From positions 1-64,000 of the forward strand of contig MEDY01000105.1 of NCBI GenBank assembly GCA_001724265.1: DNA of 64,000 bases, read 5' to 3'. This document shows, piece after piece, positions 3 to 62,029 of this stretch (position 1 is the stretch's first letter; each line of letters begins with the position of its first letter). Position numbers and translations under genes: made by a program. The notes beneath the pieces were generated by a model that saw nothing but the letters and a program-made list of their open reading frames with translations, searched no databases and had not been told where the DNA came from. Source of the DNA: Rhizaria sp. SCN 62-66 (Eukaryota).

Positions 3-3000
3 CTGCCCGCTGCCCCCGGCAGGGCCGCCGCGCGCGCGCCGCCGCCGCGCGCCGCTGCCGCCGCTGCCGCCGCAGCCGCGGCGCAAGCGCCGCCCTCGCG
101 CCCCGCGGCCGCCACTGCGCTCTCGCGCCAGCTGCTTACACCGCCGGCCGCGCGCGCTGCCTCTGCGTCCGCCTATGCTTCTGGCGCCGCTTCGAGCGCT
201 GCAGCGCCCGCAGTGCCTGCGCCGGGCGTCGCTGGCTCCGCCCCGGCCGCGCTGCAGGCGCATCCGCCGTTTCTGGGCTCTACGTCATCAGCGTCTTCGC
301 TGTCGGCTGCAACCGCTGCAGCGACTGGCGCGGCCGCGGTTCCTGCGCTGCGGCGCGCGGCCGCGCTGCTTCGCGTGCGTGTGCCCGCGAGCGCGCTGGC
401 GCTGGCGCCGGTGTGCGCGGCCGTGCCGGCGCCCGTCGGCCCCGCCGCTTCGCTGCTGGATCGCGCTCTCCGTCGCCAGCTCACCGCGCTCTCCGCGGCC
501 CCGGTCTCAGCTTCCCCTGCGCGCACCGCCGCTGCGCGTGCGACCCGCGCTGTGGCACCACCTGCGGCTGGCCCCTTGGGCCCGACGCGGGGCATGAACG
601 ATGACTGGGACGGCGACATTGACCGCAACGGCGACACGAACTGGACCGGTATCGAAGACTGCGACAGAGACAGCGACGACGCCGCCGACTGCGGCGAAGA
701 GGACGAGGACGGCCACGGCGCGGACGCCGCGCCCGACTCGATCTACAAGGTCTGGCGTCTGCGCCGCGCCCGTGCGGCACGTGATAAGCGTGACCCCGGC
801 ACCAACGCTGATGACGGCGCGGATTGTGAGGGACGCAGCGCGACTGCGCGGCTCCGCGAGGAGCTTCTCTTTACTGTTCGCTCGCGGGAGTAGCTCTGCG
901 AGGTGCGCGATGTCAAGATCGTTGCTGCTGCGGCAAACTCAAGTGAGGCCGCTAGCACCACTGCGAGCACTGGGCACGCCAAGAGGAGGGCGCGCGCGTC
1001 CGCGGCGGCTGCGCTGCCCGCGCCGCTGGCGGTGGTGTACGCCGTGCGCGCGACGCCGCTGCTGTCCCCGCGCGCGCCGCCGGCGCCCGTGGCCGCGCGC
1101 GCCGCGGTGCCTCTGCCGGCCGCGGCCGCCACGCATGCCGCCGCACTGTCCGCGCTGTCTGTGCTGGCCGCGGCCGCGGTGCGCGACGCCCACGGGCTGC
1201 CCGCGTTCACGGCCGCGGCGGCGCTGCAGACGCTCGTGCGCGAGCAGCAGGCCGCGCTGACCGCGACAGCGGCCGCCGCGCCCAAAGCGCTCTCGGTGCG
1301 GCGCCTGCGCGCGCTGGCCGCCGCTCCCGCGCTGGCCGCGGTGCCCGCGGATGACGCCGCCGCAGTGTTATCCTGCCCGTGTCCGGTGTGCGAGTTCGCA
1401 CGCGGAGAGGGGCCCGTCGCTGCGTTTGCTGACGCATTCAATGAAACAGTAATTGCCGCGCTTGCCGTCTTCACACCCGCAGCTGCCTTGACAACACCTT
1501 TTAAGAAGGAAAGCGCTGCGGGCTCAAACGCGAGCACGAACATGAACCTGAACGCTCTCGCGCAGCCGCTGGGCACGCTGGGCCTGCGGCGCGTGCCCGC
1601 GGGCGCCGGCGCCGGGCAACTCCCGAGTGCAATGACTGGTGCCACCGGGGACTCGCTGCTGCCACGGCTGCCGCGCGTGTCGGACGACGTGACGCCGTCG
1701 CAAGACGCGATTTCGCTCTCACATGGCTTCTCATCAAACTCGTCATCGTCGTCATTGCAACCGCAGTTACCTCAATGGTCCCAGTCTCAGTCCCAGTCTC
1801 TGTCACAGCCATTACAGCAACATCTGCAGGCGGGAGCTGCTGGATTTCCGTCCTCATTCCGTTCTGCCGCAGCCCCTAATTTCGCCGGCGAGCGCGCGGA
1901 CGATAACGCGGCCGAGACAGACGCGCTCCCGGGCTCCGCTGTCAAGCGCGCGCGCCACTGGTCGTCCTCGCCCGCCGAGCCTTCGTCCCCCAGCCACTGC
2001 AGCAACGGCGGTACAAGCAGCGAGGGCGACGGGGGGTGCTGCGTGGAGCTGCCCAGCGTCGGCGTCGCGGCTGCTGCGAGAGTTCCATTGCCACCGCTGC
2101 TGGCAGATCCACGCGCGGCCACGGCGCTTGCGTCGGCCCCGTTTGCCGCTGCCGCGCGCAGCGTCTGGGGCCCTGCGCGTCGCTGCGGTCCGGGCCCCTT
2201 CCTCGCCGTGATCCCTGTGCTGCCCGCAGCGGCTGCGACGGGCGCTGACAGCAGTGCCTCAACGCGTGCAGCGCCACTGGTGTGGTGCAAGCTGCCTGTG
2301 CGGCCACCCACCGGCGCATCGCCGCTTTGCACTTGCACAAGTCCGTTATTGTCGCGGCTTTGTGCGCACTGCGACGCACTGGCCGCGGGCGAGGCCTTTT
2401 CCGACGCCTCCGCGTACGCTGCACGCGCCGCCCGCGTCCACACGTTGCTGCGCGGACTCGCTGCTGCGCTGACCTCGATTGTCTCTGCACCCGCGCGCTT
2501 GACCGCCGCACTGGCCGCGACTGGCGTAGTCAAGGGCGCGCCCGCAGCCCCACCTCTGCTGTCTGCTGCACTGTTGGCCGCGCTGGCAGCGCGCTTTGTC
2601 GCCGAGGACGGCGCTGCCGAAGCTCCACGCGACGCGGCCGCAGCCGCCGAGCGCGACGACGTCAACTCTCTGTTTTATCCCGGCGTGCTGGACTGGCTCG
2701 AGATAGTCGACGCCACCGTCAACACAGGCACTGGCAGCGGCGCGGGCAGTCCGACTGTGGGCGCGAGCATGCTGGTGAAGCTGGGGCAGCGCGACATGCT
2801 TGCGCTGCGGTGCCCGCGGCCGGGCGTGGTGCTGCCGATGTGGCTACCGGGCACCGCGAATCTGAGCGGCGCCGACGCCTTCGTCTGCGCCGGCCCGCGC
2901 GCAGTGCTTTCGGCGTTCGCGACCGGGCTCGACTACACGCGCCGCGTGCCGCTCGACGCGCTGCTCGGTAACTGGGGCCGAGCGCGCGCGCACGCCGCCG

Positions 3001-6000
3001 CTGCCGTCCTGGCGCGGCCCCGCAGCACTAAGACCTTTGCACCCACAGTCCCCGTAACTGTTGCGGCACAAAAGGCGGCAGCCACCGAGGCCATTGACGA
3101 CGAAAACGTGTTTGCACTGCCAGAACTTGAGACCACTGCAACGCGCAGCTCTAGAGACGTTACCACTGACGCCGACGTTACCATTAGCCCTGCACCTATT
3201 GATACGCTATCCCCGCGAGGGCGTCGCCGTGACCGCAGCAGCCCCTCACTGAGTGCTGCGCCCGCTCCTGGCGTCAAGCCCGCTCTGCCTGCCGCTGCCG
3301 CGCCCACTGTCACTTCAGTCACTGCCCGGCCGAATGCTCACTTGCAAGCGCAACCCCACGTGTTCACAAACTCGCCGCCGACGCTGTCGACGCGCCCCGC
3401 CGTGCCTTCGGTGCCGCTATTCTCTTCGCCACCGCTGCCTTCTCTTTCACCCTCGCATGCAGCCGCGCCCGGCCGCGCCACAGCGCAGCGCCAACGGCAT
3501 GCGGACACCGCCACAAGCGCTGCGCGGAACAACGGTCAGCATGCGCTCGCCGCGCCTTCCGCGGCCCCAGGAGACTCGACACCTGCGTCCCCAACCGTGT
3601 TTCACGGGCCTGTGCCGCGTTTTAGCCCTAGCTATAGCCCTGCTCAGCAGCGCAGCGGCCGCAGCACCGCGCACGCGTCGCCCGCGTCCGTGCGCATGTC
3701 GCCCTCGCTGCGCGCGCCGCGCCGCGTGACCGCGGACGTTGTGTTCGCCGAAGCCGACGCTGGAGTCGCGCCGCCGTCGCTTGTCTACGGCTCGCCCCCG
3801 CCACTGCCGCAGCTGACTGCGACTGCGCACGCCGTCGCGACGCCCGGCTCCCCGCGACAGAGCGCGGGGCCCGCGGTGCCGACGCCCAGCACGTTCTCTT
3901 CCCTTCTTACGCTCTCGGCCGGCGGCGCGCGCGCATACCAGCAGCTGCGGGCGCAACACCTCCCTGCCGTGGCGGCTGCGGGGGGCGGTGTCGCGACGGC
4001 GCGGGGGCGGTTCGTGGCGTTGAGCGGGGCAGACGAGACGCTTGCAGACACGGTTGACGTCGCGCTCGTGCCACGCGTCAATGCTGCTGCTGGCCCCGAT
4101 TCGATCACCGATATGTCTGCTGCTGATGTCTGGCCGAGCCCGCTGCGGACCGCACGGCCTCCGTTGACTGCTGAGCTGGTGACTGCGGCGCTCGACTCGC
4201 CCTGGGCGCGGGAGCGGTCTGCGCCTGGCACGGGACACACCGAGCTCCTCGCTGCCGCGAGCCGCGCCTCTGTCGCCGTGCTGGCCGCTTCACACGCTGC
4301 GGCCGCCGCCGACGCCGCTGCAGCAGCTACCGAAGCCGCCACCGCCCGCGAGCGTGCTGAGGCGTTCGCACGCGAGCTCGACGCCGCCGCCGACGCCGCT
4401 GTCGCGGGTGCGTTTACTGGATCAAGTCATGGTGCTGTCACAGAGACCATTAAGCAGCCTGCTGATGATGGTAAGGTCAGCATTGTTGTTGCTGAAGATG
4501 ACTCTAGGCATGACGACCTTTCCGCCGACAACCAAGAGGACAACGACGGCTCATCGAGCGGGAGTGGCTGCGGGAGCGGGAGCGAGAGCTGGAGCGACTG
4601 TGGAAGTGGCAGCGAGAGTGACGGCGAGGCGCAGAGCCCGTGGCATCCGACGCGGCCGGAGCTGCTGGTGCCGCCGCCGCATTTCACGCTTGCGCCTGCA
4701 TCTACAGCGATTCAGGCAGCGGTTGCAGGCACCGCACCCAGTTACAGGACTGCCGCTGCTGATTTCGCACCAAATGCTGCCACAGTGACGCACGCGCCGT
4801 CTGCACCGCTCGTCTCGGCGTCGCCGCTGCCGTGGCTTTGGGCTGGCTCACCGACCGCCGCGCTGGCGGCGTCGCCGCTACAGGTGCTGTTTCCGCGTGT
4901 GCAGACCTTCCTCAATGCTGCGGCCTCATCTGCGCAACAAGGCCCTTCACAGAAACCGACTGTAGGCACTCCCCCGCAGTGCATCGGTACCGTTTCTCGT
5001 ATCCCATCATTCGGCACATGCGCGCCACGCCCCTGCCCCGCGCCCGGCCCGCTGCTATTCCTGCCGACGGGCCTGCTCGCACCTGCTGTTGGCGCGGTCT
5101 CGACATGGAGCGCAGTCGCGGCTGCTCGTCTGCCGCGACAGCCATGGCAGGCTCTAGCTCCTACACACCATTCTGCGAGCACGACTCAGTCACGTTCGAG
5201 TGGGCCTCGCACCAGCATTCATTGCCCCTCTGCGACAGCTGCGCCGTCATTGTCCCCACCGTCTGGCCCCACTTTTTCTCCCACAGGCGCCGCCGCCGCC
5301 CCGATGCTTGACGGCTCTGCCCCCGCCACGCCTTCTTCCACTTTAAGCGCCACTGCGCGCGCCCATTCTGACGGAGAAGGTGACATTCTTGATGTGTCTG
5401 GCCTTGTGAATGCTATCAACCAGGCTGAGTCAGCGGCTGCAGCTCATCAGTCCCAGCCACCATAGCAGCCGCAACGACTGCCGATGGCAGCTATCATCAG
5501 CGACGTGCTGACGACTAGCTTTGAGCAATACCTCTCGTTCCTGGGTTTCCAGACCTCTGTGGCGTGCCTCAGCCATGCACAAGGACTGGCTTGCATTGCG
5601 GTGCCGTGCGATCACCGCCGCCGCGCGCGCGTCGCCAGCGTTGCTGCCGCCGCCAAGACTGCGCTAAGCGCCGCGCTTGCTACTGGCGACGCCGCGACCG
5701 CGAGCTCTGCGGCGGTTTCGGCGGCTGCGGTGATGAGCGCGGCGCTCTGCAGTGCGCTGGAGTACCCTCTGCCCGAGCGCAACGGCGAACGCGTGAGCGA
5801 GATCCTCGACGTGCTTGGCGCGCCGTATCGCGTGTGCTTCGTGGACGTGACCTCGGGCGCGACGCTGCTTGAGCTGCGGCCTGAGGACGAGCCACTTGCC
5901 GCGCAGCCGCACGCGACCGCCGCGCTCGCCGCCATTGCAGCCGCGGGGCCTGCCGCCTTAGTGAACGCAGAGGAGGTGCTTGTGCTGCTTAGCACGCCAG

Positions 6001-7553
6001 CGGAGCAGCGAGCGCGCACCGCGCAGCTGCGTGCGACGGTCACAGCTCGTGGTGGGCGCGGTGGGCATGGGGTGGGTGCACCGCCGCTTGCGATGCCGTG
6101 GCTTTCTGCACCGAGCGTAGAGCACGCGGCAGATTTGTTAAATCACGGCAGTGTCAAAACCAGTGTTGGCGCTGGCAGCGGAGGTAGCGGCAGCGTGTTT
6201 GAGACGCCTTCACGCCGTGGCCGCCACCGCCGTCCGTCCGTTGCAGGCGAGCTCATGGCCGACGACGCTGTTTACAGCCCTCACAGCCACCATCACGGCC
6301 ACGGGCATAGCGCCCACAGTCATCAACGCAGCCGCAGTGACAGTAAAACCCGCGCCGCCGTTACTCCCCGCGGTCACGGCGACGCAATCTCCGTGCCAGG
6401 GTCCAGCGCGGCAGTTGCGCGCCCGGCTCCCATGACACCGCTGCCGGCATGGTTTGAGAAGATCCGCGCGTTGCTGCAGCCCGCTTACAGCTACATTCCG
6501 AGACACTCTGTTGCTTTCCATGGCTCTTATGATTCTGGCCCATGGTTTAGAGCACACGTCCAAACTACGCACTTGTCGCAGGCTCACGCGTTGGCTGCAT
6601 TTGCGCGCTCACCGGTGCCTCGCACCCCGTTGCAGCTCACCCCGCAACCGCGTATTGCTGCGTCTGCCTACACTTCCGTTTCAGCGTCAGGTGCTCGTCA
6701 TAACACAACTTCAACGACTACCGCTGCAACAACGGCTACGAGCATGCGCGCAGTCCCATCAGCGAGCGTGCTGGGTGTGCACTGCGCGGGCGCCACGCGC
6801 GCGGCGGCTGTGCCTGCTGCCGCACTGGAGGGCGTTCAAGCGTTGCTTCTTACAGTGGACGAGATTGACTCCGGTTCCGACTCTGACTCCGGCGATGATA
6901 GCGAGAGCGATGATGATGACACAACAAGCGAGCTCTGCAAAGAGTGTGCTGACGAGTGTGTCCAAGATGAGCCTGATTGGGCTCACTCGCCATCGCATTC
7001 ACAGTCGCTGTCAGACATACAAACTCGATGTGCAGCGTGCACTCGGCGCGCGCGGCGACTGCGCGCTCGTGCACGCCTGCAACAGCGCAGTGGTGGTACA
7101 AAGAAGCAAGAACCTTTCGTAGTTTTGTGGCTCGGCACGTATGCCGGGGAAGTCGCTGCCTTCGCGGCAGGCTCCCTGACTGGTTCAAGCACGAGCTCAA
7201 TCGCAAGCTTTGCTCAGGGCCTCGGCATGGCTCCCCTCGACGCACCGTCGGCCGCAGAGAGATCGCTGCTGGCGGCATTCTCCACGGACGCGTATGAGGG
7301 CGAGAGCGCAGCGTTTGACACCGCGTTTGACCCTTTGAGTGAAGCGACGCCAGCTGAGTTTGATTTAGACACAGCTGACGCAGTGCTACTGCGGCGCAAC
7401 TGTGCGCCAGCAACAACAGCTGATTGGGACGGACAGAGCTGGGACGCTGAGCTGGCTGCTGAGGCAGCAGCAGACACGGCGGATGCAGCGTTAGCTTTCG
7501 CTGTTCAGACGGGCGACTGGAGTTGCTTCGCGAGCACCAGTGTGCTGAACTGA
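3..7553 (+). CDS. Large hypothetical Ala/Pro/Ser-rich protein, 5'-truncated by the window edge (>=2516 aa if TAG is sense); in-frame TAG at 891-893 and 5463-5465
   Basis: Track ORFs 213..893, 903..5465 and 5484..7553 are all in one frame, which is open from base 3 and broken only by two single TAG codons. It ends at TGA 7551-7553, followed by an AT-rich stretch with AATAAA at 7666-7671. Cys clusters: CPCPVC, CTC..CAHC, CKEC..C, CAAC. No family recognised. Confidence 0.7.
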
Positions 7554-7935: not shown

Positions 7936-10357
7936 TCACCAGCCCGCAGTGACGGGGGCGCGCACCGTGGCGCCGGCGGCCGCGAGCCTGTTGAGCTCGG
8001 CGAGCGTCACAACGCCGCTCTGCTGCGGCGCGGGCTGGTCCGCCGCGTGCGCGCGCACGGCGCCCGGCACGGAGGGCGGCATTAACGGCCCCACGGCGGC
8101 GCGCGCGGCGCGCTCGGCGTTGGCGCGCACGGCCTCGACGTCGCTCGACACGGGCGGCAGCGCAGGCAGCGGCAGCTCCATGCCGAACGTGCGTGCCAGG
8201 CGCTCCACCAGCGGCCGCGCACGCTTGGTCCGCGCAGCGCCAGTCTCGGCACTGGCACCAGCAGTGGCAGAGGCGGCGACGGCGGCGGCGGCTCGCGCGG
8301 CGGCGGCGTCGGCGAGCTCGGCGGCGCCGGGCAGCGGCGCGAGTCCCGGCGCGGCGGTCATGGCGGCCGAGAGATGCTGCCAGTCGCGCTCGCCGACGGC
8401 GAAGAGGCGCGCGACGCGCGAGTCGAAGAGCTCCTCCTTAACGGCGTCGAGGTTCGAGTACTTGGCCCACTTGCTCTGCAGCGACTTGGCCGAGAGCTCG
8501 AAGATGCCGACCGTGCCGGACTTCTTCATGTCCTGCAGCTTCTTGGCCTGCACGCGCATGCGCGCCACCTCGAGCTGCGCCAGTTCGCGCTCGGCCTCAA
8601 CCAGCTTGGCGTGATGCACCGACTCCTGCGCCATGCGCTGGCGGTCCGCCTCGTCCGCGGGGCCCGCGCCGCCGCGCGCGAGCGCAGCCAGCTCGTCGTC
8701 GATGAGCGAGCGCAGGTGCGAGATGCGGCCCTTAAGCGTCATCCGCTCGTGCTCAAAGTCGGCGATCACCTTGCGCTCGCGCCTGCGCCGCTCCAGCTGC
8801 CGGTTGAGCGTCTCCTCGTCCCACACGAAGGTGCGGCGCAGGCGCTCCTTGGCCGAGTAGAGCGCATCCAGCGCCGCGGGCGTCGGCAGCGGGCGGCGCG
8901 CGGCCACGCTGGCGGCCAGGAACGCGCGCAGCTCCTCCTCGCCGATGCTTTGGTTGGACACGTTGAGCAGCGGCATCTCGAGCAGCTCGGCGCCGTGGCG
9001 CACGCGCAGGCGCTTGTCCGTGGAGCCCTTGCCAAAGGCGTAGCGGGCGCCGCCCGGCTTGAGGAAGACGGCGACGACCTCGGCGCAGAGGTTCTGCGTC
9101 GCGCCGTCGGGCGCCGTGCGCGCCACGCGGACAAAGAGCCCGGGCATGTAGTCGTCGAAGTACGGGTCGTCGACCATGCGCTCCAGCATCACGCGCCGGA
9201 TCTGGACGCGCTTCACGTGCTTGAGCTCCAGCGCGCGGTCGTCCTCGGCCGCGGCCACGGCAGCGGCGGCGGACGCCGCGTGGCGCGCAGTGGCCGCGGC
9301 GCCCGCGGCGGCGGCGGCGCCCGTGGTGGCCTTCTTGGTCGAGGTGGCGGCGCGCGAGTAGTCGCGGGAGCCGATGCCGCGCTCGCCGTCGGCGTCGTCA
9401 TCGTCGTCGTCGTCGTCAATGAAGCCCGCGAGATCGTCGTCGCCCGAGTCGTCGTCGACGAGCCCGGCGCCCGCGTCGTCGTCGTCGTCGTCGCTGTCGA
9501 GGTCGAGCCCGACGCCGCGGCGGCCGCCCTGCGCCTTAAGCGCGAGCAGCTTCTGCAGCTGGCTGTGCTGGCCCGCAGACATGCCCGCGCGGCCGCCCGT
9601 CGCCGACGCGCTGCGGGCGCCCATGGCCTCGCGCACGGAGCGGGACACGGCGGCCTCGTCCGCGTCGTCGTCATCGTCGTCAGAGCCCGCAGAGCGGCGC
9701 TTGCGGGAGGCCTTGGCCTTCTTCTCCTTCTTCTCTTTCTTTTCTTTCTTCTCCTTCTTTTCCTTTTTCTCCTTCTTCTCCTTTTTCTCTTTCTTCTCCT
9801 TCTTGCCCTTGGCCTTGCTCTTGTCCTTGGCCTGCGCGACGGCGGCCGCGGCGGCGCGCTGGCGCTGGTCGTTGCGGATCTGCGCCATCATCGCGCGACG
9901 TTCGCGCATTTCCTGATTCTTAAGGCCGAGGTTGTAGACGTACTCTTCGCGCTGCAGGGCGGTCATGCCGGCCATCAGCGCCTCGTCCTCAGCCTCGGAG
10001 ACCTCGCCGTCACCCGCGGCGTCGACCTGGTCATCCTCGTCGTCTCTGCGCGCGCCGCCGCCGCGGGTGGGCGCGGCGTCGCCGTCGTCGTCGGAGCCGG
10101 AGCCTGAGCCGGAGCCGCTTTCGGAGCCGGCGTCGGAGAGTTCGGACTCCGAGAACTCAGACTCGCTTCTGTTAAGGGGAATACGGGAGAGGGATGTGTG
10201 CAGGTGTGAGTCGAAGAGAGGTACATCTGCAGTGAGGGATGGGTGCGAGGGAGAGTGGGCAGAGTGAAGATCAAGGTTTTGAAACGTACCCGAGCTCAGC
10301 GAAGGCTTCAGACTCATCGCTATCACCAGAGGACTTCCGCGTAGACCTCCTGCCCAT
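7936..10357 (-). CDS. RTF1: RNA polymerase-associated protein RTF1 (Paf1 complex, Plus3 domain); exons 10357-10290 and 10168-7936, ~766 aa
   Basis: HMD-like segment EDEALMAGMTALQREEYVYN. Plus3-like segment LKHVKRVQIRRVMLERMVDDPYFDDYMPGLFVRV...CAEVVAV...YAFGKGSTDKRLRVRHG...VSNQSIGEEE. Exon 1 (MGRRSTRKSSGDSDESEAFAELG) joins in phase across a GTACGT...TTAACAG intron. Stop is TGA. Confidence 0.85.
9718..9804 (-). repeat. Coding (KKE)~9 tripeptide repeat in RTF1
   Basis: Purine-only 9-nt unit repeat on the minus strand, translating to KKEKKE...KK. Confidence 0.85.
10169..10289 (-). other. Spliceosomal intron in RTF1 (121 nt)
   Basis: GTACGT donor, CTCAC branch-like motif, pyrimidine tract and AACAG acceptor; the phase-2 junction restores the frame. 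Confidence 0.75.
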
Positions 10358-10912
10358 AGTGACTATAGAGAAACGCATTATAAACAAAATAAATGGAGTT
10401 AGTGAGATGTGGGGAGCGGGAGGACGTGGCCTAGGGCGACTCCGGCCCGAATGGACTGAGCGGTGGACGACGCAGATTCATCCTCGGAGCAGAGGATCTT
10501 ATTGTTGCCAATTTAAAACAATATTATTTTGAATAGATAATATAGAGCACTGAGTCATTCAAACGCATATCAAAGTCCTATCAAAACGACCGATGCTGCC
10601 GTTAGAGACCTCGCCAAGATCGCTTACGGCGGTTTGCCTGGCCAACCTCGCAACACCCACCGACTTCGCCAAAACGCAAGACAAGTCGAGCGAAATCAGA
10701 GCGTGAACGAGCATATCATGAGGTCATTGCAGGGGAGGACAGAGAGAAGAGGCATGTTTTGATATGTATAAGGGTTGTTAATACGTTGGATTTTTGTTTT
10801 TTGGTTTTCACGCGTGAGTTTTTCTCACTCTGCATGTGGTTCTTATTATCTGAAGTTTAAATATCATCTCGGGCACGGCCGCTCGGTGCGCCGCCGCGCC
10901 GCAGCGGCTGGC

Positions 10913-12244
10913 TTACTTCTGGGCCTTGGGGCCGCCCTTGCTCTTGGCGGCGGCGAGGAAGGACGCGTAGCCGCCGATGGTGGCGTTCTCGTCGAAGAGG
11001 TCGAGCGCGGCCTGGCGCTGCGCCTCGGCGGCCGCGGCCGCGTCGGCCGTCTTGCGCGCGCGGAACGCGTCGACGGGGCGCACGGCGAGCGGGACCTGGC
11101 GCTTCGACACCTGCGGCTCCGCGCGGAGGAACGGGCGCGTCTGCGTGGTCTGGCCCTCGGTAAAAATGGCGTGCTCGTCGAGCCCCAGGTCGCGGAGCAG
11201 CACCTGGTACGTGCGGAAGCGGTGGCGCTGCAAGTACTTGAGCAGGCGGCGGCGCTTGCCCAGCAGCAGGTGGTAGGGTAGCGTCGACGCCTTGTCCTGC
11301 TTGTGGCGCGAGCGGTGCAGCTCCATAACGTTGAGGCGCTCAGTGAGGACGGCGATCTGGACCTCGGTGGAGCCCGTGTCGCCGTCGCGGCGCTTATAAT
11401 GGTCGACGATGGCCGCCGTCTTGGCCTTGCGGATGTCGGCCGAGGACGCGAGGTCCAGAGCAACGGCCTGGCGTGCCAGCGCTACGTGCGCCGCCTCGGC
11501 CGGGTCCGCGGCCTGGCGCGCGAGCCCGTCGAAGAGCACGTTCTGCAGCTTGGCCTCGGAGGACAGGCCCTCGAGCATGGCCGCGCGCGTGAGGTCGTCG
11601 GCCTCGGAGCGCGAGATCGAGTCGTTGCGCGACTTGGTGCGCGCCTTCTCCGTCTTCATAAACTCGGTGTTAGTGTCGTCGTTCTCCGTGGTGTGGCGAA
11701 AGATGTCCGAGTGCGGCCGGTTGCGCGCCACGGCGGCCTTCTTGGCGGCCAGGTACTCGGCGTTGAGCTTCTTGCGCTCCTCGAACGCCGCCACCAGCTC
11801 AGCCGAGCGGCGCGGGTGCACGGCGGGGGGCTGCGCCGCAGCCTTGAGAGGCTGCGCGGCGGCCTGCGCAAAGAGCGACTCGTACTTGGCGACGTACTGG
11901 GCGCGGGAGCGCGTCTCGGGCGCGGTGGCGATGACGGGGCGGGCGGCGACGTACTCGGGGGTGAACTCGGGGTCGATCACCTCGATGTACTCCTCGTCGT
12001 CGTCGTAGCGGCGGTTGCGGCGGGGCATGGAACGCTCAGAGTCGGAGGACATCGCGGCGCGGACCTCGGAGATGGGCGCGACGGCAACAGCGGAGGCGCT
12101 GGTGGTGGTGCGCGCAGAGGCGGCGAGGCGGGCAGACAGAGCAGAGCCAGTAGCCAGGCTGCTCATGTTGCGCGACTGCTGCCGGACGGCGCCCAGGAGC
12201 AGCTGCATGCCTTGCTGTGCTTGAGTGAGAGCACGACCAGACAT
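10913..12244 (-). CDS. MRPS15: Mitochondrial ribosomal protein uS15m, ~443 aa with long N-terminal extension
   Basis: Bacterial-type S15 core DGDTGSTEVQIAVLTERL...HKQDKAS...LLGKRRRLLKYL...YQVLLRDLGL. The N-terminus from ATG 12244 (MSGRALTQAQQGMQLLLGAVRQQSRNMSS) has no acidic residues and resembles a mitochondrial presequence. Stop is TAA. Confidence 0.88.
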   Translation of the reverse strand: MSGRALTQAQQGMQLLLGAVRQQSRNMSSLATGSALSARLAASARTTTSASAVAVAPISEVRAAMSSDSERSMPRRNRRYDDDEEYIEVIDPEFTPEYVAARPVIATAPETRSRAQYVAKYESLFAQAAAQPLKAAAQPPAVHPRRSAELVAAFEERKKLNAEYLAAKKAAVARNRPHSDIFRHTTENDDTNTEFMKTEKARTKSRNDSISRSEADDLTRAAMLEGLSSEAKLQNVLFDGLARQAADPAEAAHVALARQAVALDLASSADIRKAKTAAIVDHYKRRDGDTGSTEVQIAVLTERLNVMELHRSRHKQDKASTLPYHLLLGKRRRLLKYLQRHRFRTYQVLLRDLGLDEHAIFTEGQTTQTRPFLRAEPQVSKRQVPLAVRPVDAFRARKTADAAAAAEAQRQAALDLFDENATIGGYASFLAAAKSKGGPKAQK

Positions 12245-51100: not shown

Positions 51101-54100
51101 GGACGCCGAGGAAGAGATTGACCCCAGAGACCTCATCGGCCACTTCTCGCACGGCGACGCCGCCGAAGACGCGCCAAGCGAGCCCGCGGTGAACCCGAAG
51201 GAGATGTTTTACAAGCAGCGCTGGGCGCGCGTAATCTCGCCCGGTCTCAAGCGCGGCGGCCACGTCATCGTGGACCTATGCACGCCCGCGGGCACCGTGG
51301 AGCGCCGCGTCATCGGCCGCAGCAAGGTCGGCGCGGCCGGCTACAAGCACGCGCGCACGAGCCGGTGGGGCGACCTGTGGCCCTACGAGCACGTGCGGTC
51401 ACGCAACGACCTCAAGCGCGAGCAGGAGCTAGCGCGGGTCCAGGCCGACCTCGAGATCGCCGACTCGCGCGAAGCTCTGGCCAAGCTCAAGGAGATGCGC
51501 ACCATCTTCGGCGCGCTCGCGGGCGCGGGCGAGGCCGCCGCGGCGGCGCCGCTCAAGGAGCAGATGATCGAGGGCTTCAAGGCCGTGGACGCGGCCATCG
51601 TGCGCGACATGGAGGCGCGCGACCGCGTGGCGCGGCTGGCGCAGAAGGCGGCCGACGAGCGGGCCGCCGCGGCCGCAGCCAGCCAGGCCGCCGTCGCTGG
51701 CGCCGCCGCAGACCTCGCCTCCGCGAGCGCGGAGCTCGAGGAGCTGGCCGCGGCCGAGGCCGCCGCCGCGGTCGGCGCGGGCGCAAGTGCTGAAGAGCGC
51801 CGCGCCGCGCTGGACCGCGCGCGCCTCGCGCTGGGGCTCTCCACCGCGGGCTCCGCCGACGAGATCGAGGACCTGGTGGGCGTCGGCCGTGGCGCGCGCG
51901 GACGCACCGTGCTGTCGCGCGGCACCGACGACCTGGGGCCCGCGCCCGTGAACGTCGGGCTCGGCGCCGCGCACACCGCCGTGGAGGAGGACGAGGACTG
52001 GATGCAGGCCGAGGAGGACGACCTGATCGCGCTGGAGAACCAAACTGAGGAGGAGTGGCTCGAAGGGCTGCCCGACCACCTGCGGAACAACCCGCAAGCC
52101 GTGGCGGAGCTGCGCAAGAGCGACCTGGAGATCCGCGCCATCCGCGTCCGCGAGCACCTTAAGCTTAAGTCCGCGCTCGGTTTCCTCGAGAAGGCCGAGG
52201 AGGCCGCCGAGGCGCCGCGCGTGCCGCTGTCTCCGCGCGCCGCGGCCGCTAAGCGCGCCGCCGACGCTGCCGCGGCCGCGCTGGCCGCCGCCGATGCCAC
52301 CGGCGAGGACGCGTCGCTCGCGCATGCCAAGGCGATCCTGCGCGCGCAGGAGCCCGAGTTCGAGGTGACGGCCGGCGGCGGGCTGCGGCCCGCGCGCGTG
52401 GACCGGCACCGGCTCGCGGCCGAGGCGCGCGCGCTGGCCAAGGAGATCAACGACCCCTTCGCGGCGAGCGCGATCCAGGACGTGCGCCAGGCCTATCGCA
52501 TGGCGCTCGCGGCGCAGAAGGAGGGCCGCGCCGGCGCGCTGCCGCAGCCCGACGCTGTGGACAAGGCGCTCGCCGCCCGCCGCGCCGCCGACGCCGGCGC
52601 CGCGCCGCTCAACCCGGCGCGCGCCAAGGCCGCTGCGGCTGCTGCGGAGGCCAAGGCCGCCGCGGCTGGGCCCGCGTCCGCGGTGTCGCCCGCCGAGGCC
52701 GCTGCGCTGCTGGCAGCCGCGCACGCCCGCGCCGCTGCCGCCGGTGGCGTCAGCGCAAGCAGCGCTCGCGACCCCTTCGGCACTGCGTCCGCGCACCTCT
52801 TCGCCAGCGCGGACAAGGCCGCTGCCGCCACCAGTGCTCCCGCCTCTGCCTCTGCCTCGGCGCGCAACCGCAGTGCGGAGAGCGCGCTGGACGCGCTCGA
52901 GTCCGCGGCCGGGTCCGTGCGCGGGCTGGGCAGCGACGCGGCCTCGCGCGACGCCGACTTCGCGGGCTTCGACGTCGACGACGACGACGACCGCTTTGCC
53001 GACGACATGGCCGACCTGGACGACATCGACGCGCTGTTCGAGAGCTTCGCGCAGCGCGGCATCGAGGGCCGGCCCAGTGACGTTGCCTTCGCTGCCCCCA
53101 AAGTCCCCGCACCGGCGCCCGCGGCCACAGCCGCGCCCCGCGCCGTGCCGCAGCTCGCGATGGCGGACTTGTCCGAGTTCGAGGCCCTGCTCGCGCCCGC
53201 GCTGGCCAAGACGGCCGTCATGCCCTCTGCAGCCAGCCTCGCGCCGGGCGCCAACACCGCCGCCGCTGCACAGGCTGCGCCGAAAAAGATGAGTCTGCGC
53301 GAAACCATGCAGAGCACGCGCGCGTTCCTCAACAACGCCGGCTCCAACGCGAGTGCAAGCGGCAAGAGCACTGCGCCGGCGACCACTCGCCAAAGCGAGG
53401 CCTTCGCTGACGAGGCCCTCGAGGCGGGCGCGCTCGACTCTGTCGGCGCGGGCGACCAGTTTGACGAGCGCCAGCGCCAGCGCCGGCTGCAGAAGTTTGG
53501 CTCCGTCGAGCGCGGGGCCGACGGCGGCGCCACGGTTACGCTGCGCGGCAAGGCCGCCGGCCACGCCCCTCAAACGACGCTCACGCAGCAGCAGCGCGCC
53601 GCCGGCGTAAGCAACACCACTAGCGCTCGCCCCGAGTATGACGACTACGGGGTCGACGCTGATGAAGGCGACGAGGGCGACTACGAAGACGTCGAGGACG
53701 TGCTCAGCCGCGCCAAGGCCCCCAGTGCCTCCGACCTCAAGCGCCAGGCCAAGGCCAAGCGCGCCGCAAACGCTGCCGGCAACGCGACCGCTGGCCCTTC
53801 CGGCCGCCGTCGCTACTCGACAGTGGTTGCGCAGGCGCTGTCCGTGCCCCTGCCCGTCGTCGCGCTCTCTGCCGCCGCTCCGCACCTCGGCGCCGGGCTC
53901 GGCATGGGCCTCGCTGCGGCCCGGTCCGCGCTGCGGCCGATCACGGTCGCGCCCCTGCGCTTGTTCGCGTCGTCCTCGGCTGCGTTCGGCCGCCGCAGTG
54001 CCGCGGCGGATGACACTGACGCGGTGCTGCGCTCGCTGCTGCGCGACGACGACGACGGGCCTGTGTCCGCCGGCAAGAGGCTGCTGTCGCCCGCGCAGGC

Positions 54101-57100
54101 GTTTGCCAGTGACGTGTAGGTGGACTTCCCGGCCACCTCCTCACCGGCTACGGCCCGCCGCGCGCGCGTGTCCGCGACCGCCACCGAGACTGCGCGCGCG
54201 GCGACTGACCTGCGCGAGCGTGCAAAGCAGTCGAATGAAGTACAGTTCACGAACCGCGGCGACGCGACTTCCCGCACGCGCAACCGGCCGCTGACGCCCG
54301 CCGAGCTGCAAGCGCTGGTGCGCCCCATCGGCTCGGCGCGTGAGGGCGACCCCGCGAGGCGCACAGAGGGCGGCTTCGTCTTCAACGTCATGCCCGGCGC
54401 GTACACCACGGTCGGCATGCTCGCTTCGGCCGCCGCGTCGCAGCAGCTGCACAGCCGCGCCGCAGGACTCAACCTCGCGCCACCGCTCTCGGCCGCAGCC
54501 GCGGACGCCGTCGCGCGCGCTGTAGGCCCTGCGGCCGAACCCGCGCCGCAACACGTGCCTCTGCGCAGCCCGTCGCACCGCTACAGCGCGCTGGTAAGCG
54601 AGCGGAACCCGTACACGCCACCGCCCGTGGACCGCAGTCGCGGCGCGCACGGCGGCGTGGACCTTACGTGGTACCCCTCCGCCGACTCGCTCGCCGCCGC
54701 CGACGCCGCCGCAGAGGCTGCGAACGTGGACCGCACGGACGCGGCCGCCGTGGGGCGCGCGCAGGCGCGTCTATTGCGCGGCCGCGCTATCGCCAAGACT
54801 GCCGCCGGTGGCGCTAAGGCCGTTTCGTCGCCGGCGGCCGGCACGTCGGGCGTGACTGTTGACGCGCGCGGCGCTCGTAGCTTCCGCGACAAGTTCGGCA
54901 ACGTCTTGTCCGACAACGAGCTGGACATCGGCGAGTCGCAGCGCGTCGTGCACAGCGACGGCACGGTCGAGTACGTGCCGCCGGGCCGCACGCCGCGCGG
55001 TGTGCGCGGCCGGTCCTCGCTACCCAACCGCGAGCAGAACGACCAGATCGACGTCGACGATTTCCGCCGCGTGATCGCGATGCGCCGGCTCGAGGACGAC
55101 GCCGAGGCGCTGAAGACCAACGCCAACGGGCGCCTGCTGGGCGAGCACGGCGAGGCCGGCGGACCAGTCAAGTCGCTCTACGGCGTGTCGCGCGAGGAGC
55201 GCGAGTCTCGCCGTGAGGAGCGCAAGCGCATCAAGGCGGCGCAGTTCCGCTTTCGCATCGAGAAGGGCCGCAAGTCGCTGATCGAGGAGGCCGGCGGCAA
55301 ATACTCGCCCAACGCTGGCATCCGCGCCGTTTCGCGCGCCGAGGCGCAAGCCGTGTTCACGCACGCGAGCGAGGAGCTGCTGCGGCGCGACGGCCTGCTT
55401 CCGCCCTCTGCCGATGAGCGCGACGCGGAGCAGCTCGAGCGCGACTACGACGAGGAGCTCGAAGACGAGTGGCACAACGACATGCAACTGGTGCCGCTGA
55501 CGCCCGAGGGCGAACTCGACCTCTCTGGCACGGCGGCGTCGCAGGCGGACCCCCGCGCGGTGACCAAGCGCGACATGCGCCGTGACCGCGCCATCGTCGA
55601 AGACTATGAGTCGCACCTGCAGCGCGTGGAGATGGTCGAGTCCGGTGAGCTCGTCGAGGGAGACGACGGCTGGAACATCCACCAGGCCGCGCAGCGCGTG
55701 CGCGAAAACGCCCCCGCGTCCGCGCGTCGGAGCATGGACATTCTCACTAACCTGCTCAAGAAGGATAGCATGCCTGAGACCGTCACGGCGGGCACCAACG
55801 GCATGCCCGTGCCCCGGTCCGCCGCTGAAGCCCTTGCGCAGGCGGAGGCACATGCCGGGCTTGCACCCGCACCCAGCGCTGCTGTCGCTTCTGCTAGCAA
55901 TCACGGCTCAGCCTCCTCCGGCTCCGGCGCCTCTGGCTCCGGTGCTGGCGCTGCGGCTGGCGGCAGCAGCAACGGCGACGACGCCGATGCCGATGCTGGT
56001 TCATCGTACTTCCCTGCTGCACGCGCTGCTCGTATGGCCAAGAAGCAGCGCGCGCTTTCGGGCGTCGCTCGTGTGGCTGCGGTTGCGGACGCATCGCGTT
56101 CACCACTCGAACGCTCCAACGAGGCAATTCTGCTCACCGGTGTTCCGCATGAGGCGTCTTCCGCCGCTGCCGCAGCGGCTGCTGCTGCCGCTGACGCTGT
56201 GACGCGTGCGGGCGGCTCCAGTGCGCACCGTGATACGCTTGCCGCGGCCGCGCACATCACGACGACGCTGGGCGAGGCCGATCAGCGTCGGCAGGCGCTG
56301 GCGCAGGTCGCGCAGGAGCGCCTGCTGCACCCTGGGCGCGTGCGCTCGGCCGCGGAGGTCGGGCTCGCGCTCGAGGCGATGCTGGGCGCGCCTGAGACGC
56401 AGCGCATGTTGAGCGACGCGGGCGCTGCGCAGAGCGCGGCCTCGGGGCTGTCGGCGCCGGTGGAGGCTGCGAAGGCGACTGCCGTAGCCGCGGGCCGTCT
56501 TCGCGAGCAGGCGCAGCGCACCGCTGCTGTTGAGTCCGCCGTCGCGAGCGTGGCCATCCGCACCATGTCTCTTACGCAGACGCTCGACGGCATGCGCACT
56601 GACGCCGCTGCTCCCCCCAAGCGCAGTTCACGCAAGGATGCTGCTGCTGATGTTGCGCCTGTTGCTCCCGCTGCTGTGTCGCCACGCTTGGCCGAGCTGG
56701 CGAAGCGCTACGACGCGCTGCGTGCGCGCGAGGCCGCTGCGATGCGCGCCGAACAGGAGCGCTTCATGCCGCTCTCTAAGCCGTCGCTGGGCCACGCGTG
56801 GACCGCGAAGAACAAGGTGGTGAGCAAGTTCGACGAGGCCAACCTCGAGGCAGCTTCCATGATGTACCGTGCGCGCGCCCACCGCGCCCTGACTGCGAGT
56901 CTTGAGGAAGAGGACATGCTGCGCCGCCTTGGCGACAAGAACCTGGCCGCCCTGATGCCCTCCCCGGACGCTCCTTTGAGCGGTGGCGACGACGACGAGA
57001 ACCTGCTCGAGGACGCCGTCATGTTCGAGCGCCAGCTGGCCGACGCCGAGGCGCACCTCAAGAACGTCGTGGCCGCCGGCGCGCGCTCTGCGGAGCGCAA

Positions 57101-57263
57101 GATGGAGCGCCAGGCCGCGGGCAAGAGCGCTGCGCGTCGCACGATTGAGGACCTGGCTGCCAAGAACGCCGAGAAGGTGCGTCGTCGCGAGGCCCTTTTC
57201 AACATGCCCGCCGCCGACATCGTGCAAAATGTGCCCTTCAAGAAAGGTGGCGGTCGCCGGTGA
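48156..57263 (+). CDS. RSM22: Mitochondrial SSU assembly factor RSM22/METTL17-like with a very long C-terminal extension (~3035 aa if TAG 54117-54119 is sense; 1987 aa otherwise)
   Basis: Arg/Ala-rich presequence. Family motifs RLPVVFSVLRRVLTEVSNRVPGFAPRNVLEF, DLVIAAYALS, GGLLLLVES, PCAHDKPCPM, CKF, FSYVVLQRG, WARVISPGLKRGGHVIVDLCT, YKHARTSRWGDLWP. ORF 54120..57263 follows the TAG directly in-frame with no ATG and no intergenic DNA, and ends at TGA before an AT-rich UTR. Confidence 0.85.
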
Positions 57264-57482
57264 ATTAACAGCTGTCACTTCGTAGTGACATTAATGTTAC
57301 AACTATTTATTGATATTTAAGTCAAAATAATCAATGGTCAAGGCCATTGCAATAAAGACAAAATCTTCTAACTTTACTCATGGTGAATCTGAATCAACCT
57401 TGTATTGTCATTGTGAGATTAAGATCGCACGAAATAAGTACTAAAATAAACTGTGTGATGTTTGCGTTAACAGTGCGCTCAT

Positions 57483-59837
57483 TTATGCTGCGACGCGCTT
57501 TTTCTTCATTGCGGCAAGCTCGTCTTGCAGCTTACGCGTCGCCGCGCGCGCCTGAGCCAACCTTGCTGCGGCTGCGGCTGCGCCCTCGGCCGTGGAGCCA
57601 TCCTCGGTCGCGAGCGCCGTGGGCACCGGCGGCGGGATAGCAACAGCGGCGACCCCCCCATCCGCAGCGACGACGCTGGCGACCGTGAGCACGCGCCGCA
57701 GCGTCTCGGCCTCGGCGCGCGCGGCCGACAGCGCCTCCTCCCTGCGCGCGAGCGCGGTGCGGTGCACCGTCGCGCGGTGGGCCAGCTCCTGCTCAGCAGC
57801 GGCCGCACCGCGCTGCGCCGCCGCGGTCGCAGCAGCCGCGGCCTCGGCGTCGGCCCCTGCGCGCCGCGCCTGGCTCTGCGCAACTGTCACAGTGTTGGCG
57901 AGAGCGGCGCGCTCGGCCTCAGAGGCCAGCAGCGCGCTCTCGAGCGACGCGATGCGCTCAGCCTGCGCAGCGAGCTCGGCAATCAGCGGGGCTTCGCGGG
58001 CCTGCGTGCGAGAGTACGCCGTGCGCTGCGACTGCTGCGCAGTCCGAGCCTGTGTAAATATATATGTGGGTCAGACCGATAATGTTGAGTTTGGAAGTGT
58101 GAGCATGATTCATGTGATGACTTAGCGATTCAACACCGTCATTTGCCACACAAGCACATTTGGGAATATGTAAGATAATGCCTACCTTTAGCTGTTCAAG
58201 CTCAACTTCTGCCGTCGCGCGCGCATGCGCCTCTGCGGCCAGCTGCGAGTGCAGACGCGCCAGCGATGCTGCATGACCCTCGGCCTGAACCTGTGAATGG
58301 ATCGCAAATCCAAGGGTAAGGGAGCACAATATGTAAGACGATAAGAGAGTGAGAATATGCAAAGTTTGACACAAAAAGTAATAAAGCAGACACAATTTTA
58401 CATTTCATGATAATAAACAAAGAAAACACAAAAATTCTGCGTACCTGCATGAGCTCCAGCAAGTGTTCCTGCTTCTCTTTGGCGACAACGTCCGACTCGC
58501 CCACCACAGCCGCCGCGGCAATAGCAGTCTGCGTCTCTTGCTTGGCGACCGCGGCCTCAGCCCTGGCAGCCTCGAGCGCGCCCGTCATGGCCGCCTTCTC
58601 CGCCGTCAGCGTTTTAGCCCTGCGCTGCGTGTCCTCGGCCCACGCGCGCGCCTCGCCCAGCGCGGCCTCGAGCGCCTCACGCTGTTCCCGCTGCGCGCGC
58701 TGCGCCTGCGCGATCGCGGTCTCCACGCCCGTCGCCGCCGCGGTACGCAGCGCCGCGTTTTCGGTCTCCAACTCCGCGCGCGCGCTCTCAGCGCTAGCCG
58801 CGCGCCGTTGCAGCGCCTGCGCAGAAAGCTCGGCGGCGTGCGCGCGCGCCTCGGCGTCGGCCATGCGCGCCTGCAGGTCCAGCAGCAGCGACGCGGTCGC
58901 CGCGGACAGGCCGTTGTTGGCGCTGTTGCCGCTGGCGCTGGCAAGCGCGGCAATCTGGGCAGCAGCGGCCGTGGACGATGACATGTCGGCCACCGGGGCG
59001 GGCATTGGCTGCTGCTGTTGCTGCTGCTGCTGAGGCTGTTGTTGCTGCGAAGGCTGCGCGAAGGCGGGTGCAGCGTCCTGCTGCGCGGGGTGCGCAAAGC
59101 TGTCGTTGAGACTGGACGCGTTTGACGACGAGCGGTTCAGCGCAGCGGCCGCGCGCGCCTGCTGCATGCGTTGCGCCAGACTCAGCCCACCGGCCGACGG
59201 GGTCGGTCCTGGGGCTCGCTGCTGCGGCTGCGGGTCGGGAGCGAAAGGCGCCGCAGCAGCAGGTGCAAGGACAGCGGGGGCGTTATCAGACTCATAGTTG
59301 TCGTACGAGTCGTTCTGCTGTTGTTGCAACTCTTGCTGCTTCGCCATCTGTATCTGCAGGCGCTGCATAATCGACAGTCCTTGCTGTGGTTGCTGCTGCT
59401 GTTGTTGTTGTTGCTGCTGCATTTGCTGTTGCTGTTGTTGCGCAATCTGCTGCTGCTCACGCTCCTGCTGCTGCATCTGCTGCTGCAGCTGCGCGCTCTG
59501 TTGCTGCTGCATCTGCAACTGCTGTTGCTGCGCCGGAGTCGGCTCGATCGTGATCGGCTTCAGCCGACGCTTGCGCGGCGAGCTCGCCATCACGCTCATG
59601 TCCAACGAAGAGTCGAGCATGCTCATGTTCCCACCGCCGCCGCCGCCGCCGCCGCCAAGGCTGGCGCTGCTGTTGCCGAAGCCCGGGGCGCGCGCGGAGG
59701 GCGGCGCGGGTGCGTGGGGCGCGTGACCGTGGGCGTTGTAGGCCGCGGCCGCTGCGCCCAGGCTGGCGAACGCGCCGCTCATGCCCGCGCCGGCGGGGTT
59801 CATGCCGGGCGGCAAGTACTGCTGCTGCTGCTGCTGT

Positions 59838-59880
<43 letters not shown>

Positions 59881-61996
59881 TGTGCTGCTCTTGTTGCAGC
59901 TGCGACTGAGCCCGATCCTCACGGCTCGACTTCTGGGCGCGGCGGCCTGACTTCAGCGGCGACTCAGGGTCGTCGTCGTCGAGCGCGTCCCAGCCGGCCG
60001 ACGCCGTGCTCGCGTCGAGCCCGCTGCTGCTAGCGTTCGGGGCGTTGCGTATAGAGCGCGACTGCGAGTTATTGTGGTGGTCATTGTTCTGCCCCTGCAG
60101 CGAGCTCAGTGCGCCGAACGCGCCCGCCTTGGTGGTCGCGGGCGCCGCACCACCGTTGCCGCTGCCCCCGTTGCTGTTGCTCTGCTGGCCCGCGGCAGTG
60201 GCGGGCGAGGGTGGGGGCAGCGTGCCGCCGTTCTGGACGTACATCGCGCGGTGCTTCGCTAGCTGCTGCGGGGACAGGCCGAAGCGCTCCTCGGACTCGG
60301 GCCACTCGTCGTCGTCCTCCGGCTCTGCGCCGGCCGGGGAAGTGGGGTCGCTGTGCTTGGGAGAGCGGTTGCCACCGCGGGACTGCTGCTACTGCTGCTG
60401 CTGCTGCTGCTGTTGCGGTGGGAGGTTGCGGTGCGGTGGCGTCTGCTCCGGTGTGGTGTTGCTGCCCCAGTACCCGTCCTCCTCCTCTTCTTCCTCGTCC
60501 GCGGCATTCACGTTATCGGCGCGATTGGCGTTACCACTGCTCTTCGGCTTCGCGGGAGTCTGGTCGAACTGCTGCTGCGCCTGAGGCTGGGGCTGCTGCT
60601 GCTTACGAGGCGGCAGATACGAGTCGTCGAGCGCCATGCTAGAGTCGGGCGACGTCGGGGGCGTCACCGCGCCGCCGCCAGCGCCGGGCGGGGCCGCGAC
60701 GGCCGCGCGCGCCGCAGCGAGCGCCGCCGCCATGCCCGTCAGCGGCGGCACCGTGGCCACGGCGGCCGCCGCGGCGGGGTTGCCGGCAGCGGACTGCGCT
60801 TGGATGCCGTTGCCGCTGCCGTTGGCGGGCTCCGCGATGGTGGCCTCGCCCCAGAGGGTGACCTCCAGGTGCGAGTCGTCGATTGGAGCCCTCTGCTACT
60901 GCTGCGGCGGTTGCGGTTGTTGAAGCTGCTGCTGGAGTTGCTGCTCGAGCTGCTGCCGCTGCGCCTGCTGCCACAGCGCCGTGCGCGGCGACACGGCCCC
61001 GCTGCCGTCGCCCTCGCCCGCGCTGAGGCTGCCGCTGCCGCTGCCGCTGCTGCGCCGCCCGCGGCTCCGGCTGCGCGACCCCGAGCCCGCCCCCGAGCCC
61101 GGGCCGGAGCCGGAGCCGGAGCCTGCGCTGCGGCCGCGGCCGGTGTTGGGCGGCGACGCCGCGGGCTGCGAGCGCAACGACTGCTCGTGCGAGAGCTGCG
61201 CCTGGTGCAGCGCGGCGACCTGCTCCGCCGCGGCGGGCGCCATCGCGCTCACGGCGGCCGCGGCCGGCGGCGGCGGCGCCGAGTCCACGGCGTAGCTCGC
61301 GCCCGACGCGCGCGCGCGGAGGCGCCGCGGGGACACCGCCTCGTCGTATGTGCCGGACTCGCCGCCCGCGGGGCTCGCGGCCGCTCCGACTGCGGCTGTG
61401 GAGGCAGCGGGGGCCTGAGGGGGCGCGTGGGACGTCGAAAGCGTTGTGGACAGGTCAAGCACGCTGTTGTCGATGCCACCGACGGCTGCAGCAATATTCG
61501 GAGCGTGCGCGTTGAAACCAAGATTGTTACTGCTTGTTGAAGGAATGCCTTGGTAAAGGTTTTGCTGTTGCTGCGGCGCCGCATTGCTGTTGTTGCTGTT
61601 GATAGGAGCAAAGTGGAACCCGCTCGCGACAGCAACAGGGACTTGTTGCGGCTTGACATCCGCGCCACGCGGCCTAACATCTGGCCCCGGGCCGCCCACT
61701 GTCATCTCCATCATTGTCGAGCCCAAGTCAAGCATCGTCTCCTCTCCGGCACTTGCGCCAACAGCGCCCACCGCGGGAGCGGGAGCAACATCAGCGGCAG
61801 CGGCTCCAGTCGGCATGACGCTGTTGTTGCCAAAGTCGCCAAACGTCATCGTGAGCCCAACCGTCTCGTCGGCATTGTTATTGGGGTCATTCGCGGCAGG
61901 CAGGCCCAGCGTGGGGCCGGGACCGCGGCGCGTGCTCACGGTCATCGGCGCTGCACCGGCCCGCGCCTGCGCCTGCGCCTGCGCCTGCGCCTGCGC

Positions 61997-62029
<33 letters not shown>

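Follow-up and report, generated by a model that had tools for sequence, protein, structure and literature searches.

The window analysed here is a 64,000-nucleotide stretch of DNA (positions 1 to 64,000 of contig MEDY01000105.1 in GenBank assembly GCA_001724265.1, deposited as Rhizaria sp. SCN 62-66). It is nuclear eukaryotic DNA, with GT-AG introns and genes for nuclear-encoded mitoribosome proteins, and three of its seven modelled genes contain in-frame TAG codons, five in total. The best explanation for these codons, still unproven, is that UAG probably serves as a sense codon in this organism while UAA and UGA continue to act as stops. Judged from codon context, the residue encoded by UAG is most likely glutamine, because three of the five TAGs precede CAG, two lie within CAG runs, and CAG dominates the glutamine codons (757 of 862). 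As the first-pass annotation had rightly cautioned, a CAG-run context indicates the mutational origin of a codon and not the residue that is decoded.

A variant code of this kind had been proposed in that annotation from the letters of the window. The proposal is sustained by reading frames and base composition that run through the TAGs, by a spliced gene that continues after two of them, by the lack of TAG among nine gene termini, and by gene boundaries that recur in other assemblies. It is weakened by the limited weight of TAG exclusivity and by the absence of the codon from conserved genes, and its glutamine assignment derives from the CAG-run context.

In-frame TAG codons and the continuity of their reading frames

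The coordinates and frames first given for the five TAGs are correct. Their positions and codon contexts are as follows:

891..893, + strand: TAG 1, in gene A, context GAG TAG CTC
5463..5465, + strand: TAG 2, in gene A, context CCA TAG CAG
54117..54119, + strand: TAG 3, in the Rsm22 gene, context GTG TAG GTG
60896..60898, - strand: TAG 4, in the RhoGAP gene, context CAG TAG CAG
60389..60391, - strand: TAG 5, in the RhoGAP gene, within a CAG run

The three genes that contain them are:

3..7553, + strand: gene A, Ala-rich, without a Pfam family, 5' end beyond the window, ending with TGA 7551
48156..57263, + strand: Rsm22-family gene, a single exon of 3035 codons, ending with TGA 57261
57483..64000, - strand: RhoGAP gene (PF00620), 5' end beyond the window, ending with TAA 57483-57485

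Each of these frames is otherwise open. On the + strand, TAG 891 and TAG 5463 are the only interruptions of frame 3 over 3-7553, and TAG 54117 is the only one of a second frame over 48087-57263; a - strand frame is open over 64000-58202 apart from TAG 60896 and TAG 60389. The long same-frame continuations originally described were found again, with 1523 (891), 695 (5463), 1047 (54117), 168 (60896), and 728 (60389) codons following the respective TAGs. Despite the lack of a Pfam family and a weak codon-bias signal, the frame of gene A is a real coding frame, because it contains 3 stops in 2517 codons, compared with 37-82 in each of the five other frames. The statement that no TAA, TGA, or frameshift interrupts the TAG-containing genes holds, and in-frame TAA and TGA number 0 in the 19,283 codons of all seven modelled genes. 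TAG makes up 5 of these 19,283 codons (0.26 per 1000), and the 3,804 codons that lie beyond the first TAG of each affected gene are without frameshift, TAA, or TGA.

The sequences after the TAGs do not have the features of separate genes whose frame coincides by chance with that of their neighbors. No ATG is found for ~215 codons past TAG 891, the distance from TAG 5463 to the next ATG is only 18 nucleotides, and the coding frame is unchanged at all five sites. In the Rsm22 gene, a segment in 53970-54060 (+), ~60 codons upstream of TAG 54117, resembles a mitochondrial presequence by eye (MGLAAARSALRPITVAPLRLFASSSAAFGRR). This 9-kb open reading frame could conceivably contain an internal start; TAG 54117 would stay in frame regardless.

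The nine gene termini listed at the outset were all recovered, with TGA at 7551, 7936 (-), 39282 (-), and 57261, and TAA at 10913 (-), 38674, 41417, 47477, and 57483 (-). This small sample thus comprises five TAA, four TGA, and no TAG. The DNA past each of the nine drops to less than 50% GC, as had been noted, and the GC fraction after real gene ends in a stop-blind screen is 0.31-0.48. The RhoGAP gene had, however, been ended wrongly at 58202. Its supposed tail is intron 1, and the gene runs on to TAA 57483 with the following structure:

64000-58445, 58290-58186, and 58049-57486, - strand: RhoGAP exons, with a spliced coding sequence of 6228 nucleotides
58291..58444, - strand: RhoGAP intron 1, 154 nucleotides, GT..AG, GC 0.34, phase 0
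58050..58185, - strand: RhoGAP intron 2, 136 nucleotides, GT..AG, GC 0.40, phase 0

The only stops in the spliced coding sequence are the two TAGs and the final TAA. Past both TAGs, the gene continues for 871 codons, across two phase-0 GT-AG introns and with its coiled coil persisting, before it closes with a TAA and an AT-rich 3' region.

Coding potential across the TAGs was scored with a codon log-odds model that was trained on the midasin and GH38 genes only and in which the three stop codons are neutral. At every one of the five sites, the TAG frame ranks first of the three frames in this stop-blind model, before as well as after the codon and over spans of either 100 or 200 codons. TAGs 891, 54117, and 60389 have clearly positive scores on each flank, and TAG 60896 has a positive score downstream. 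Over 100 codons, TAG 891 has scores of +28.0 before and +26.8 after, with both other frames strongly negative. TAG 54117 is flanked by +41.4 and +39.3, and TAG 60389 by +36.7 and +51.0. The sequence before TAG 60896, a low-complexity Ser/Gly/Gln stretch, scores -18.6, and the 100 codons after it score +50.2. The weakest site is TAG 5463, where frame 0 scores -35.0 upstream and +5.3 downstream of the codon, still the top of the three frames. The unchanged coding texture that had been described for all TAGs is seen at four of them, and at 5463 the signal is weak. A six-frame run of the model places TAG 54117 in a coding segment at 50671-54270 and both RhoGAP TAGs in a (-) segment at 59581-60930, and the coding score of the Rsm22 gene is unbroken over 48241-57330.

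The same model was applied to every TAA, TAG, and TGA on both strands, with a filter that required a coding score >15 and 100 preceding codons free of stops. Thirteen stops passed. The sense-like ones number three and are all TAG (891, 54117, and 60389), with TAA and TGA unrepresented; the four TAA and four TGA that passed are all terminator-like. The remaining two are terminator-like TAGs at 61293 (+) and 15951 (-), which were rejected as gene ends because they belong to antisense frames within known genes and are followed by GC-rich DNA.

Base composition also continues across the sites. The GC fraction at third codon positions (GC3) is 0.8-1.0, and that at second positions (GC2) is ~0.5, across TAGs 54117, 60896, and 60389; on either side of 54117, GC3 is 0.82-0.92. 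The window contains 25 stretches with less than 50% GC, all of which are spacers, introns, or shallow dips. None falls within the Rsm22 gene at 48190-57221, and the nearest to any TAG is ~580 nucleotides away. Because every low-GC stretch lies at least ~580 nucleotides from a TAG, the TAGs are not located in introns or at gene borders. The tails beyond the TAGs keep a GC3 of 0.8-0.9, whereas introns of the same gene have GC of 0.34-0.40, which argues for active maintenance of exon composition over a merely regional property. The contrast is sharp across the window, with introns and intergenic spacers at 25-48% GC and exons at 70-78%, so that exon borders are visible by eye. A single-sequence AlphaFold model spanning TAG 891 was without a usable fold (mean predicted local distance difference test score 46.8). 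In keeping with the initial remark that no TAG occupies a conserved column, all five sites are outside Pfam domains.

Recurrence in public data, placement of the organism, and gene content

The region 53500-61500 is present in 10 of the 11 public runs listed, which come from six studies. The runs are bioreactor, wastewater, activated-sludge, and microbial-fuel-cell metagenomes and include one polyA metatranscriptome. Boundaries at TAGs 891, 5463, and 54117 are found again in independent assemblies, and assembly error is not the source of these three codons. A DNA contig from another study spans TAG 54117, covering 53707-55023 with 0 differences. Public protein records include one of 1987 residues that ends at TAG 54117 and one of 1047 residues that begins with the next codon, each on three contigs, as well as a variant that matches the former at 1986 of 1987 residues and has the same end. 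Pieces of gene A are likewise on record exactly in other assemblies, with 903-5462 on three contigs and 5484-7550 on five. Gene callers thus cut the genes of this organism at TAG, and public records end at or restart after these codons. Because the records break in this way, the proteome would be mis-annotated in metagenome resources.

Other matches bear on the population rather than on the TAGs. A metagenome scan recovered a contig (L001) identical to window positions 56135-59666 at 3532 of 3532 bases, which spans no TAG, and scans of genome-contig collections gave no further contig of the organism. Near-identical sequence was observed in wastewater-type metagenomes from six studies dated 2015-2025. 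The public data suggest that the population is widespread and nearly clonal. In an exact look-up, five of seven sequences were unmatched, of which three were guessed pieces of the RhoGAP protein and two were alternative starts of gene A. Four runs contain no variant rows at 60389 or 60896, though read cover there is not demonstrated. Downstream of the TAGs, two of three variants are at third codon positions, a number too small to gauge selection. Many variant rows at 49610-49769 and 51518-51545 were discarded as low-complexity sequence from other organisms. One public protein (P0251) is identical to a piece of gene A over 965 residues (to ~3798, +) and then has an unrelated tail of 85 residues. 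This divergence suggests that the contig of the other assembly either differs by something like a frameshift or is misassembled.

Contigs of polyA RNA flank the TAGs on both sides, at 52792-53724 and 54817-55142 and at 59893-60204 and 61338-61689. No intron-skipping joint was found among the 15 of 575 joints listed, and assembled contigs cannot reveal transcript ends.

The affiliation of the organism was approached through midasin, whose relatives are at most 51% identical among the matches listed. The midasin tree (40 rows, 1915 columns, LG+G4, short search) places the window within a clade of seven uncultured sequences, with 100% support in the Shimodaira-Hasegawa-like approximate likelihood-ratio test (SH-aLRT). 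This clade is sister (96%) to oomycetes together with the labyrinthulomycete Mucochytrium. In this tree, which holds no alveolate or rhizarian row, the organism would belong to an uncultured clade beside stramenopiles. Ciliates and metamonads are absent from the 240 midasin matches listed, which bears out the early impression that the organism is unlike Iotanema or a ciliate. Literature searches turned up neither a nuclear code change in stramenopiles nor any report of this organism. The midasin of one uncultured relative (P0038, 7351 residues) has a long insert in the AAA ring that appears intein-like by eye.

The DNA of the organism is ~70% GC and intron-poor, and GC per 2-kb window ranges from 51 to 78% across the 64 kb. 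Apart from the three genes described above, the window contains:

7936..10362, - strand: Rtf1-like (Plus-3) gene, without TAG, ending with TGA 7936
10913..12544, - strand: mitochondrial ribosomal S15 gene (PF00312), without TAG, ending with TAA 10913
12844..38676, + strand: midasin gene, a single exon of 8610 codons, without TAG, ending with TAA 38674
39282..40245, - strand: CIA2/MIP18-like gene, multi-exon, with PF01883 on exon 39609-39953 and the last exon ending with TGA 39282
42389..47479, + strand: GH38 alpha-mannosidase gene, without TAG, ending with TAA 47477

The mitoribosome genes that had been named earlier are indeed present, since Rsm22 (PF09243 at residues 411-645, E 4.7e-34) and ribosomal S15 (PF00312) were both matched. 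Midasin is long, at 8610 codons compared with 4,800-7,600 residues in the homologues listed. Ala-rich low-complexity sequence swells other proteins too, including S15 (543 codons), GH38 (1696 codons), and Rsm22 (3035 codons). The AT-richer stretch at 38.7-42.4 kb contains small multi-exon genes, among them the CIA2/MIP18-like gene, and 40729-41419 (+) may be a fragment of an ABC-2-type membrane protein, a weak match (E 0.0088).

Alternative explanations and a possible route to reassignment

Several results weigh against the reading of UAG as a sense codon. In the codon usage of this organism, 76% of random nonsense substitutions would produce TAG, and five TAGs out of five would be expected with P = 0.25. 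TAG exclusivity is therefore weak evidence. The midasin, GH38, Rtf1, and S15 genes, with 11,657 codons (410 CAG), contain no TAG, compared with five for the three poorly conserved genes, which have 7,626 codons (347 CAG). Under random placement, this split has P ~0.01 when reckoned on codons and ~0.02 when reckoned on CAG, and the confinement of TAG to poorly conserved genes also fits tolerated truncations. With TAG assumed to make up 22-25% of stop codons, the finding of no TAG among nine termini has P ~0.08-0.11. All recognised domains of the Rsm22 and RhoGAP proteins lie upstream of the TAGs, and gene A is without a domain, so truncated proteins could still work. When the 1200 residues surrounding TAG 54117 were searched in full against 1.84 billion representatives with HMMER, only the two pieces of the window's own protein came back. 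Among the 32 of 10,933 RNA and DNA pieces listed, none spans 60389 or 60896, and no RNA piece spans any TAG. Finally, the 64-kb window has neither a tRNA gene nor any match to Rfam. A search with the RhoGAP tail gave no match, its own protein included, probably because polyGln words swamped the query.

The alternative that best survives these data is a standard code in which recent nonsense mutations have shortened the disordered C-terminal tails of three proteins that are non-essential or carry their domains at the N-terminus, the downstream open reading frames being young relics. TAG would then be the expected nonsense product of CAG-rich usage, and two of the TAGs lie within CAG runs, where C>T yields this codon. 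The positions of the TAGs are also as expected, 3' of the recognised domains and restricted to the three genes with the least conservation, and no relatives or conserved columns indicate that the tails are required. The condition of the tails nevertheless argues against such decay. Three of seven genes are hit, two of them twice, yet the thousands of downstream codons described above have acquired no frameshift, TAA, or TGA. When indels are assumed to occur at 0.1x the rate of substitutions, a disabling event would be a TAG in 17% of cases, and five of five would be TAG with a probability of ~1e-4. The tails also retain exon-type GC3, in contrast to the low GC of the introns, and the introns past the TAGs retain GT-AG ends and phase 0. 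Moreover, the TAGs are fixed in all assemblies seen, and no terminus of the nine is TAG. Truncation under the standard code is thus unlikely.

A leaky stop, read through without formal reassignment by a weak suppressor or by tRNA-Gln(CUG) as a near-cognate, appears quite improbable. It would accommodate the rarity of TAG and its absence from conserved genes, and an abundant tRNA-Gln(CUG) may be presumed from the share of CAG among glutamine codons. The next base is C at four of the five TAGs, and C at +4 is the leakiest stop context in eukaryotes. However, mid-gene stops that are read only in part would yield mainly truncated products of three genes, and the termini, few as they are, include no TAG. 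The five sites share no downstream motif or hairpin. Programmed readthrough is associated with motifs of the type stop-CARYYA, to which the hexamers after the TAGs (CTCTGC, CAGCCG, GTGGAC, CAGAGG, and CAGCAG) give no full match, the closest being CAGCCG at 5/6.

Correction of the mRNA, either by A-to-I editing of UAG to UIG (Trp) as in ascomycetes or by U-to-C editing to CAG, is very improbable. UAG does offer the preferred U at -1, and the restoration of premature UAG codons in dozens of Fusarium genes, as reported (PMC4817773, PMC10776026, PMC11156358), provides a precedent. A-to-I editing of this type is nonetheless known only from ascomycetes in their sexual stages, and in the midasin tree the organism falls outside fungi. 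The TAGs have no shared placement in hairpin loops (z-scores of -0.30, -1.26, 0.02, 0.58, and -2.11, the last reflecting a CAG-repeat hairpin), and neither A>G nor T>C rows occur at the TAGs in the RNA run, cover there not being demonstrated. Equally improbable is the remaining explanation, that assembly or sequencing errors, intronic TAGs, or adjacent genes sharing a frame have been misread in DNA so GC-rich that long open frames are common in all frames, given that TAG boundaries recur in independent assemblies with one TAG spanned by another study's contig, that introns and spacers are AT-rich here with none near a TAG, and that the frame is kept at every site.

If UAG is indeed a sense codon, it may be read by a tRNA with the anticodon CUA, or by an abundant tRNA-Gln(CUG) acting as a near-cognate, and its recognition by eRF1 would be weakened. 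UAG does not appear to be a freely used synonym, because it is absent from the four conserved genes. Its rarity and its restriction to low-constraint, disordered parts of long proteins would suit a young or inefficiently decoded sense codon. A tentative extension, for which we would claim somewhat less than an even chance, is that an unsampled lineage has been caught at an early stage of UAG-only codon capture, at which UAG is no longer a terminator and is still rare as a sense codon. The confinement of UAG to polyGln and disordered stretches, and its avoidance in conserved genes, would then represent a natural intermediate of reassignment. Extreme GC content and the near-exclusive use of CAG could make tRNA-Gln(CUG) the dominant near-cognate reader and might in this way drive the change.

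Comparison with known systems

Restorative editing in fungi resembles the present case in that genomic in-frame UAGs occur there in genes that still encode full-length proteins. A-to-I editing is reported to restore premature UAG codons in Fusarium and Neurospora, with UAG converted to UGG within hairpin loops during ascomycete sexual development (PMC4817773, PMC10776026). In contrast, no hairpin is shared among the TAGs of the window, and the organism lies outside fungi in the midasin tree.

Codes in which UAG alone has changed are known in a handful of lineages, namely Iotanema, one rhizarian, and some phyllopharyngean ciliates, and they contradict the older view that UAA and UAG have to change jointly. 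In Iotanema spirale (Metamonada: Fornicata), UAG encodes glutamine, and UAA and UGA are stops (Panek et al. 2017, PMC5304391). UAG is reported to be common in Iotanema and occurs at conserved glutamine positions, and the GTS motif of eRF1 is changed (PMC5304391). The present system is similar in that UAG alone is apparently sense, UAA and UGA terminate, and glutamine is the likely meaning. It differs in that UAG is rare and is never found at a conserved column. It differs also in its organism, which is of an aerobic type with mitoribosome genes, is ~70% GC, and groups beside stramenopiles in the midasin tree.

The same source describes the rhizarian exLh (Sainouroidea), in which UAG encodes leucine. 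There, 384 in-frame UAGs in 71 genes lie at conserved leucine positions, termini are exclusively UAA (56) and UGA (15), and UAG is under-used in highly expressed genes (PMC5304391). Like exLh, the organism of the window appears to have a UAG-only change, recognised in uncultured sequence data, with UAA and UGA as termini. Unlike in exLh, the context here is that of CAG and glutamine, with none of the five sites Leu-like; the midasin tree, for its part, holds no rhizarian rows with which kinship could be compared.

Among phyllopharyngean ciliates, UAG is reported as glutamine in Hartmannula and Trochilia and as leucine in three TARA taxa (PMC11687900). These, too, are independent UAG-only changes that emerged from metagenome or genome mining and in which UAA remains a stop. 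The ciliates have identified suppressor tRNA genes and widespread UAG, whereas the DNA of the window is GC-rich and not ciliate-like.

If UAG is a sense codon here, a further independent UAG-only code would be added to this small group, with a pattern of features that is the same in kind as in the known cases and with UAG far rarer. Such changes would then extend further in taxonomy and in base composition, to a GC-rich, intron-poor organism of wastewater systems found in six studies. The rarity of UAG in this organism could also show what the early stage of a reassignment looks like.

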